Positions 1 to 1,121 are shown, numbered from the stretch's first letter. The stretch is 64,000 bases of DNA from Escherichia coli (GCF_003334355.1 NZ_QOWP01000007.1); one strand, 5' to 3'. The notes: generated by a model not told the origin, from the sequence alone. Translations and numbers: made by a program.

Positions 1-1121
1 TCGCTCGCCCGGGCAACGTCTGGGCACGGCTGGGGACGCCAGTGCGTCATTTATTGAATGATGCCGGATTCTGCCCCTCTGCCGATCAAATGGTGATTAT
101 GGGTGGCCCGCTAATGGGCTTTACCTTGCCATGGCTGGATGTCCCGGTCGTAAAGATTACCAACTGTCTGTTGGCTCCCTCTGCCAATGAACTTGGCGAA
201 CCACAGGAAGAACAAAGCTGCATCCGGTGTAGCGCCTGTGCTGACTCCTGCCCTGCGGATCTTTTGCCGCAACAGTTGTACTGGTTCAGCAAAGGTCAGC
301 AACACGATAAAGCTACCACGCATAACATTGCTGATTGCATTGAATGTGGGGCTTGCGCGTGGGTTTGCCCGAGCAATATTCCCCTGGTGCAATATTTCCG
401 TCAGGAAAAAGCTGAAATTGCGGCTATTCGTCAGGAAGAAAAGCGCGCCGCAGAAGCCAAAGCGCGTTTCGAAGCGCGCCAGGCTCGTCTGGAGCGCGAA
501 AAAGCGGCTCGCCTTGAACGACATAAGAGCGCAGCCGTTCAACCTGCAGCCAAAGATAAAGATGCGATTGCTGCCGCTCTGGCGCGGGTGAAAGAGAAAC
601 AGGCCCAGGCTACACAGCCTATTGTGATTAAAGCGGGCGAACGCCCGGATAACAGTGCAATTATTGCAGCACGGGAAGCCCGTAAAGCGCAAGCCAGAGC
701 GAAACAGGCAGAACTGCAGCAAACTAACGACGCAGCAACCGTTGCTGATCCACGTAAAACTGCCGTTGAAGCAGCTATCGCCCGCGCCAAAGCGCGCAAG
801 CTGGAACAGCAACAGGCTAATGCGGAACCAGAACAACAGGTCGATCCGCGCAAAGCCGCCGTCGAAGCCGCTATTGCCCGTGCCAAAGCGCGCAAGCTGG
901 AACAGCAACAGGCTAATGCGGAACCAGAAGAACAGGTTGATCCGCGCAAAGCCGCCGTCGAAGCCGCTATTGCCCGTGCCAAAGCGCGCAAGCTGGAACA
1001 GCAACAGACTAACGCAGAACCAGAAGAACAGGTTGATCCGCGCAAAGCGGCAGTTGCCGCGGCTATTGCCCGCGCTCAGGCCAAAAAAGCCGCCCAGCAG
1101 AAGGTTGTAAACGAGGACTAA
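1..1121 (+). CDS. rsxC: RsxC/RnfC electron-transport complex subunit C, C-terminal part (5' end lies upstream of window)
   Basis: ORF open to window start (track 42..1121); two CxxCxxCxxxCP ferredoxin motifs ([24 protein letters not shown]); Ala/Lys/Glu-rich C-terminal 32-aa repeats; followed directly by rsxD. Confidence 0.9.
747..1090 (+). repeat. In-frame 96-bp tandem repeat (about 3.5 copies) inside rsxC
   Basis: Unit GATCCGCGCAAAGCCGCCGTCGAAGCCGCTATTGCCCGTGCCAAAGCGCGCAAGCTGGAACAGCAACAGGCTAATGCGGAACCAGAAGAACAGGTT recurs at 747, 843, 939 and partially at 1035; encodes repeated [32 protein letters not shown]. Confidence 0.9.

Follow-up and report, generated by a model that had tools for sequence, protein, structure and literature searches.

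The 96-bp tandem repeat at the 3′ end of Escherichia coli rsxC is the typing locus ms11 and varies by whole in-frame units

The 96-bp tandem units near the 3′ end of E. coli rsxC form the known MLVA typing locus ms11, which is hence not a new locus. In our reading, to which we assign a probability of about 0.9, ms11 is a minisatellite-type VNTR whose units are gained and lost whole and in register. All coordinates without another reference are those of the window, the 64,000-nucleotide stretch of E. coli DNA (GCF_003334355.1, NZ_QOWP01000007.1) that was analysed and whose first lines are presented above.

The window begins within rsxC and contains the last ~373 codons of the gene. A preliminary description of this DNA, made from the sequence alone, had named the gene rsxC, and this attribution was confirmed. 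A megablast search against 5,426 complete E. coli genomes identified the region as rsxC-rsxD in 5,425 of them, and the K-12 orthologue (740 aa; flanks 99.9% identical to the window) matched the NCBIfam RsxC equivalog model NF003454 with 868 bits, for a cut-off of 345. K-12 RsxC harbours the Pfam domains RnfC_N, Complex1_51K, SLBB and Fer4. The ORFs of rsxD, rsxG and rsxE lie directly downstream of rsxC in the window, in agreement with the order rsxA-B-C-D-G-E-nth annotated at the K-12 locus and with the operon context rsxABCDGE-nth. The region contains the following features:

1..1121, + strand: 3′ part of rsxC (ORF 42..1121); rsxC precedes rsxD in the RefSeq annotation of matching E. coli genomes
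465..1118, + strand: C-terminal tail of RsxC, with a long charged helix, degenerate Ala/Arg/Lys helices and the repeat, without Pfam domain or solved homologue
747..842, + strand: repeat unit 1 (type A), same as the first unit of K-12
843..938, + strand: repeat unit 2 (type B), a 96-bp unit in codon register
939..1034, + strand: repeat unit 3 (type C), same as the last full unit of O104:H4 alleles
1035..1118, + strand: diverged terminal copy of 28 codons, the conserved RsxC C-terminus in all Enterobacteriaceae examined
1119..1121, + strand: TAA stop codon of rsxC, directly adjoined by the rsxD ATG (1122-1124)
1122..2180, + strand: rsxD ORF, directly after the rsxC stop

Tandem Repeats Finder located the array at 746-1072 with a period of 96, 3.4 copies, 91% matches, 0% indels and a score of 521, so that the position, period and phase first described for a repeat in 3′ rsxC all held. 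The 64-kb window has no other tandem repeat except a pair of adjacent tRNA genes. Its three full units (747-1034) and the diverged partial copy are in the rsxC register, as had been proposed, and each full unit encodes a 32-residue peptide made of DPRK(T/A), an 18-residue core and (A/T)NAEPE(Q/E)QV, with 1-2 substitutions between units. The pairwise identities of the three units are 86/96, 93/96 and 83/96; the original term 'near-perfect' is therefore appropriate for units 2 and 3 (97%) and too strong for unit 1 (90% or less). The original end point, 1090, falls inside the diverged terminal copy, which is identical to the units at 53-54 of 96 positions when a full 96-base span running past the stop codon is compared. 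Blocks of 96 nt neighbouring the array agree with the units, or among themselves, at just 27-42 of 96 positions, which places the repeat far above background.

The last rsxC codons (AAC GAG GAC TAA ATG, with the start of rsxD) include GAGGA at 1113-1117, a motif that resembles a Shine-Dalgarno sequence for rsxD. We infer that it serves as such, which may partly explain the conserved ...VNED/VNEE terminus of RsxC.

The Shigella/E. coli MLVA panel that includes ms11 is reportedly that of Gorgé et al. 2008 (J Clin Microbiol 46:1026). The ms11 primers, 96-bp repeat and 286-bp offset of that panel are reproduced in PMC8215070 and PMC4644529, with the offset figure in PMC4644529; the primers are also found in PMC11773471, where the locus is entered as "ms11 (rsxC)". 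Both primers have a site in the window:

596..615, + strand: ms11 forward primer site GAAACAGGCCCAGGCTACAC, exact single match, 0 expected by chance
1150..1169, − strand: ms11 reverse primer site CTGGCGCTGGTTATGGGTAT, exact single match, inside rsxD

The in-silico amplicon of the window spans 596-1169 and measures 574 bp, that is 286 + 3×96, corresponding to 3.0 units, and an allele devoid of units (see below) gives an amplicon of exactly 286 bp. The exact match of both primers, together with the 96-bp unit and the 286-bp offset, identifies the array as ms11. Primers, unit, offset, gene and variable copy number are all shared; the window simply carries a rare allele. A literature search under the gene names rnfC and ydgN retrieved no report of a VNTR or repeat in E. 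coli.

Copy number was determined with a query made of the flanks only (window 1-746 joined to 1080-2200). The two joined pieces aligned in 5,404 genomes, and because the query aligns as two pieces, the span in each record measures the length of the array. We examined 110 complete genomes, taken as systematic samples of 59 and 51 along the RefSeq score ranking, which do not constitute a random population sample. The flank spans differed in steps of 96 bp and corresponded to the following numbers of full units:

2 full units: 1/110 genomes (1%)
3 full units: 1/110 genomes (1%)
4 full units: 14/110 genomes (13%)
5 full units: 69/110 genomes (63%)
6 full units: 14/110 genomes (13%)
7 full units: 11/110 genomes (10%)

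The Simpson diversity D of ms11 is 0.57 in these 110 sampled genomes and 0.68 in the MLVA literature, where gel-sized PCR amplicons of 718-958 bp and alleles 0 and 4.5-7 are given (MLVA studies PMC8215070, PMC4644529). Complete E. coli genomes overall carry from 0 to 7 full units. RsxC thus varies in length from strain to strain as had been anticipated, and a constant copy number in all strains, the finding that was to speak against such variation, was clearly not seen. The 3-unit allele of the window is rare, at about 1% of the sampled complete genomes; the window query with its three units aligned end to end in only 89 of 5,425 complete genomes.

The zero-unit allele was found in strain 1105 (NZ_CP023388.1), where the first and terminal copies are fused in frame and leave an intact ORF of 580 codons. 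This rsxC (32-1774 in its own record) ends at the normal stop next to rsxD, and is annotated by RefSeq/PGAP as a pseudogene ('incomplete; missing C-terminus', CDS 32-1756). The label looks like an annotation artefact produced by the missing repeat. At the level of the single unit, remainders of +3, +6 and +9 nt are due to 99-nt units with one extra CAA/CAG codon (QQQ to QQQQ), found in B2-type strains such as LF82. Such units were seen in AGR4587 and LF82 (types V, X, b and c) and shift the amplicons 3, 6 or 9 bp off the 96-bp ladder. This nested polymorphism may explain the 'half' ms11 alleles that are read from gels.

Clonal lineages mostly keep their copy number. Five units were counted in each of the 29 sampled genomes whose flanks share at least 99.5% identity with the window, and likewise in the best 40 flank matches, many of them K-12 laboratory or evolution-experiment clones; these best 40 were all 5-unit genomes of K-12 type, with no close 3-unit relative among them, and the 3-unit genomes were found with the array-containing query instead. 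K-12 derivatives, evolution-experiment clones included, carry 5 units with the exception of strain OV2, and the O157:H7 genomes sampled carry 6. The 2-unit and 3-unit alleles sit on backgrounds that are 95.8-100% identical to the window, which indicates that the same lengths arose repeatedly on unrelated backgrounds. It is because the locus is stable within lineages, yet changes often enough to recur on unrelated backgrounds, that it works as an agarose-gel marker.

For a comparison of alleles unit by unit, each distinct unit sequence was given a letter; 14 alleles comprised 34 distinct 96-nt units. The array of K-12 MG1655 reads A-D-E-F-G and that of the laboratory strain OV2 (Edinburgh) reads A-F-G, an exact loss of D-E. 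The flanks of OV2 are identical to K-12 over 1,740 nt and its RsxD and RsxG have the same protein accessions; we take OV2 to be a K-12 derivative. In the O104:H4 lineage, FDAARGOS_348 carries J-K-L-C, 2011C-3493 carries J-e-C and STEC17-183 carries J-C, on flanks that are identical over 1,740 nt. Unit e agrees with K at position 39 but with L at 54 and 70, and is therefore a K/L hybrid with a crossover between 39 and 54. The f-g-h array of O145:H28 strain RM12581 relates likewise to six-unit O145 and O157 arrays. The window itself has K-12-type flanks (1 difference in 1,740 nt) and an array, A-B-C, that opens with a K-12-type unit and closes with one otherwise known from the O104 lineage, which argues that allele import or intragenic recombination also contributes.

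These in-register losses and the hybrid unit are the traces that misaligned pairing between adjacent units should leave, and they agree with the preliminary suggestion that such arrays can expand or contract by slippage or recombination. Neighbouring, nearly identical units would pair out of alignment, either by replication slippage or by unequal sister-strand recombination, two routes that the sequences do not separate from each other or from whole-allele import. The result is a series of RsxC proteins whose lengths change in steps of 32 residues and which contain 0-7 full units in E. coli, 5 being the commonest number. The same misalignment would keep units alike within a lineage (concerted evolution), with selection holding the core peptide constant. 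In-register changes of the array also fit a report on ATCC 25922, in which an rsxC deletion of non-frameshift type arose in a line evolved in the laboratory under olaquindox selection. One E. coli genome appears to have an IS1 inside the rsxC array, as an 88-aa call annotated as a partial IS1 transposase runs from repeat units into IS1 after '...EEQVDPR'.

The polymorphism could alternatively be mainly an artefact of mis-assembled repeats. The repeat does break short-read assemblies: partial RsxC fragments from contig ends dominate the matches to a 60-aa query from the tail, and several species have contigs that break off within the rsxC tail. Collapse during assembly could account for some of the copy-number differences seen within one lineage and would likewise produce a hybrid unit; the O104:H4 2011C-3493 genome is an early assembly. 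As collapse could mimic unit e in this way, the PCR literature is important as independent support, and there gel-sized amplicons vary over the same range in independent MLVA studies. Moreover, copy number is reproducible within lineages across independently assembled genomes (5 in K-12 derivatives, 6 in O157:H7), and unit sequences differ between alleles beyond what collapse can explain. We therefore consider a predominantly artefactual origin very unlikely, and retain the gain and loss of whole units as the explanation.

A tandem repeat within coding sequence, immediately ahead of a gene that is translationally adjacent, might also suggest a contingency (phase-variation) locus, in which frameshifts would switch rsxC or the downstream rsxD on and off. 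However, units measure 96 or 99 nt, and all verified alleles are in frame and end at the same stop beside the rsxD ATG. RnfC is, in addition, a cytoplasmic subunit held on RnfD and not a surface antigen. Two kinds of exception to the reading frame were encountered. In O145 strain RM12522-C8 (NZ_CP035767.1) rsxC and rsxD are both annotated as 'frameshifted', and two other sampled spans are 1 nt short; these spans and the O145 record carry frameshifts in rsxD too, which points to sequencing errors. They are probably homopolymer errors and not biology. With every allele examined differing by a multiple of 3, an on/off switch is effectively refuted, and we give phase variation almost no credence. 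Since all alleles are in frame, ms11 alters the length of the RsxC tail and does not switch the gene.

The 34 distinct units encode just 14 peptides. Their variable sites are distributed 7/5/20 over the three codon positions and pN/pS is 0.08; the peptide is therefore under purifying selection in the rsxC frame. The array is nevertheless overlapped by long open frames in other registers:

111..1226, − strand: long antisense ORF (371 aa), by-product of codon composition, not a gene
539..1045, − strand: second antisense ORF, by-product, not a gene; array-driven
655..1110, + strand: ORF in an alternative sense frame, by-product, not a gene; depends mainly on the array

The array has no stop codon in two alternative frames and a single one in a third. 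Loss of the units reduces the 539-1045 antisense ORF from 178 to 82 open codons, and this ORF is thus driven by the array. The longest antisense open stretch (111-1287, 391 codons), by contrast, retains 303 codons in the zero-unit allele and so follows from the codon composition of the tail as a whole, which is rich in Ala, Arg, Lys, Glu and Gln. The original proposal that the array is the source of the antisense ORFs consequently applies mainly to 539-1045 (−) and 655-1110 (+), and not to the longest stretch. A 736-aa 'RsxC', the representative of the E. coli RsxC cluster in a 50%-identity library, is frameshifted near residue 525 and continues in the +1 frame through the whole array; as this frame lacks stops, a frameshifted allele looks almost full length.

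Could one of these ORFs be a real overlapping gene, for whose sake the repeat is conserved? Open frames of 151-371 codons do overlap the array, the alternative sense frame stays open through it, and the 736-aa frameshifted protein is present in databases. However, the codon-position pattern among units (7/5/20; pN/pS 0.08) concentrates substitutions at third positions of the rsxC frame and gives no sign of coding constraint in the antisense or alternative frames. The core peptide in the rsxC frame is also invariant across genera while the DNA diverges. The longest antisense frame extends far beyond the array and persists in the allele without units, as predicted from GCN/AAR/GAR/CGN/CAG usage. 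An overlapping gene is on these grounds extremely improbable, and the frame under constraint is that of rsxC.

We extended the comparison to other genera with a scan of one genome per species, which returned 80 Enterobacteriaceae loci. In every complete RsxC of these 80 species an invariant 18-residue core is present in 1-7 copies, Trabulsiella and some Klebsiella having 1-2. Each core is followed by a lineage-specific acidic linker rich in Pro, Gln and Ala, and the protein ends with a conserved terminal variant ending in (D/E). The period of the unit ranges from 30 to 48 aa across Enterobacteriaceae species, with for example:

Escherichia: 32 aa
Salmonella: 31 aa
Citrobacter: 31 or 34 aa
Klebsiella: 34-37 aa
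Kosakonia: 47-48 aa

Within a species, neighbouring units share 72-97% DNA identity, mostly 85-97%, and this points to concerted evolution in the individual lineages. In a library of representatives at 50% identity, RnfC relatives with 43-69% identity carry 2-9 modules with related cores and periods of 27-72 aa. The core follows the pattern (D/K)(P/K)(R/K)KAAV(E/A)AAIARAKA(R/K)K and is recognisable in RnfC relatives down to ~43% identity, without belonging to a curated family. The 60-aa tail query revealed no other protein family with the motif in a database of 5.8 billion proteins; apart from two chimeric gene calls, almost all its matches were pieces of RsxC located at contig ends. In a separate observation, CACSKA010000003.1, a record labelled Chryseobacterium sp. 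18061, encodes an RsxC that is 82% identical to that of E. coli and has the 32-aa repeat of Enterobacteriaceae type; this assembly is probably contaminated or mislabelled.

A closely similar situation has been described in Erwinia amylovora (PMC10587187, Sci Rep 2023), whose RsxC contains a 40-aa tandem repeat present in 0-5 copies among strains and proposed as a VNTR marker. The gene is the same as in E. coli, and so is the position, the repeat beginning at residue 553; the units agree in their first 16 residues, and the 18-residue cores at all positions but one (R17K). In contrast, the unit has 40 aa with an Ala/Pro/Gln-rich linker in E. amylovora and 32 aa with a different linker in E. coli, so that the two arrays were amplified and homogenised separately in each lineage. 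Another in-frame coding VNTR, CVN004 in tolA, belongs to the generic E. coli MLVA (PMC11773471). Like ms11, it consists of in-frame repeats in an Ala/Lys/Glu-rich helical spacer of an envelope-associated protein, tolerates length polymorphism and is used for typing. The ms11 unit is much longer (96 bp) and combines a strictly conserved core with a variable linker, and RsxC belongs to a redox complex, of which it forms the cytoplasmic subunit on the NAD(P)H side.

The catalytic part of RsxC is homologous to the solved RnfC structures of A. vinelandii (8ahx_C), C. tetanomorphum (7zc6_C) and A. woodii (9eri_C), with E-values of 1e-83 to 1e-121, and shares with them the barrel-sandwich, FMN-binding NuoF-like, SLBB and 2x[4Fe-4S] domains. 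The solved chains (435-496 aa) stop at the ferredoxin domain or soon after it, all lack the repeat module, and they align only to residues 15 to ~450/498 of K-12 RsxC. Pfam gave no match past residue ~458, NF003454 stops at residue 570 within the first unit so that no NCBIfam model covers the module, and a PDB search with the repeat tail gave no significant match (best E-value 0.35). Within the unit, the core is an 18-residue cationic, Ala-rich helix (net +4), followed by the Pro-containing acidic linker (net −4). An AlphaFold2 single-sequence model of K-12 RsxC 441-740 (mean pLDDT 75, pTM 0.20) is a string of helices, one per core, broken at the NAEPEEQV linkers and devoid of tertiary packing. 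A membrane-binding amphipathic helix was also considered and rejected, the Eisenberg moment being 0.11-0.27 and the mean hydrophobicity −0.2 to −0.6 in all 18-residue segments of the unit.

With low confidence, we suggest that the module could serve as a flexible arm, for multivalent docking or as a spacer, on the cytoplasmic side of the SoxR-reducing Rsx complex, or Rnf complex. A literature search on the C-terminal extension of RnfC found no explanation of the gammaproteobacterial tail. Candidate partners may be ferredoxin or flavodoxin, SoxR, another Rsx subunit, or nucleic acid. The broader proposal, that the array is an ancient RnfC-specific module of variable copy number which docks an acidic partner, and whose valency tunes the efficiency of electron transfer or SoxR resetting, appears doubtful to us.

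A K-12 line evolved under phosphate starvation is reported to have fixed rsxC-I525F (PMC4759930). The mutation acted like ΔrsxC in that background, and its authors called it 'null or neutral'. Residue 525 corresponds to window ~663-665, in the non-repeated part of the tail, and the mutation hints, if weakly, at a functional role of the tail. The copy number itself might be adaptive, with the number of units acting as a tuning knob of Rsx activity (for instance of the rate of SoxR re-reduction) under lineage- or niche-specific selection. Multi-copy arrays of the core have been kept across Enterobacteriaceae and in distant RnfC despite the turnover of linkers, the peptide is under purifying selection, and the E. 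coli distribution is bounded, mostly between 4 and 7 units. The selection of I525F in K-12 evolution, where null and neutral were left undistinguished, and the rise of the non-frameshift rsxC deletion under olaquindox can be cited in the same sense. However, alleles with 0, 2 and 3 units occur in otherwise normal isolates from many sources, the number of units in our sample tracks lineage and not host or source, and Trabulsiella and some Klebsiella manage with 1-2 cores. Adaptive tuning by unit number therefore seems rather unlikely, and the gain and loss of whole units in register remains our reading of the variation.

In practice, ms11 is a working typing marker that breaks short-read assemblies and confuses annotation, an intact zero-unit allele being called a pseudogene and a frameshifted allele passing as nearly full length. 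Its wider interest lies in a strongly constrained repeated peptide whose core is conserved across genera, in a long RsxC/RnfC tail that is covered by no structure or domain model. The natural alleles with 0-7 units form a ready-made allelic series for testing the RsxC/RnfC tail.

Several minor observations were made along the way. Short 'partial RsxC/RnfC' proteins are very numerous at the contig ends of public draft assemblies from E. coli, Salmonella, Citrobacter and Klebsiella. The other tandem repeat of the window, at 38487-38645, is made of the two adjacent tRNA genes and has an 81-bp period. An Rfam match to the HPnc0260 'antisense RNA' lies on the opposite strand at 38607-38769, overlaps the second tRNA gene and runs past it. 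Rfam matches to the sRNAs STnc550, rydB and RprA are also present in the window, within 29506-29896, 56762-56822 and 62426-62533.
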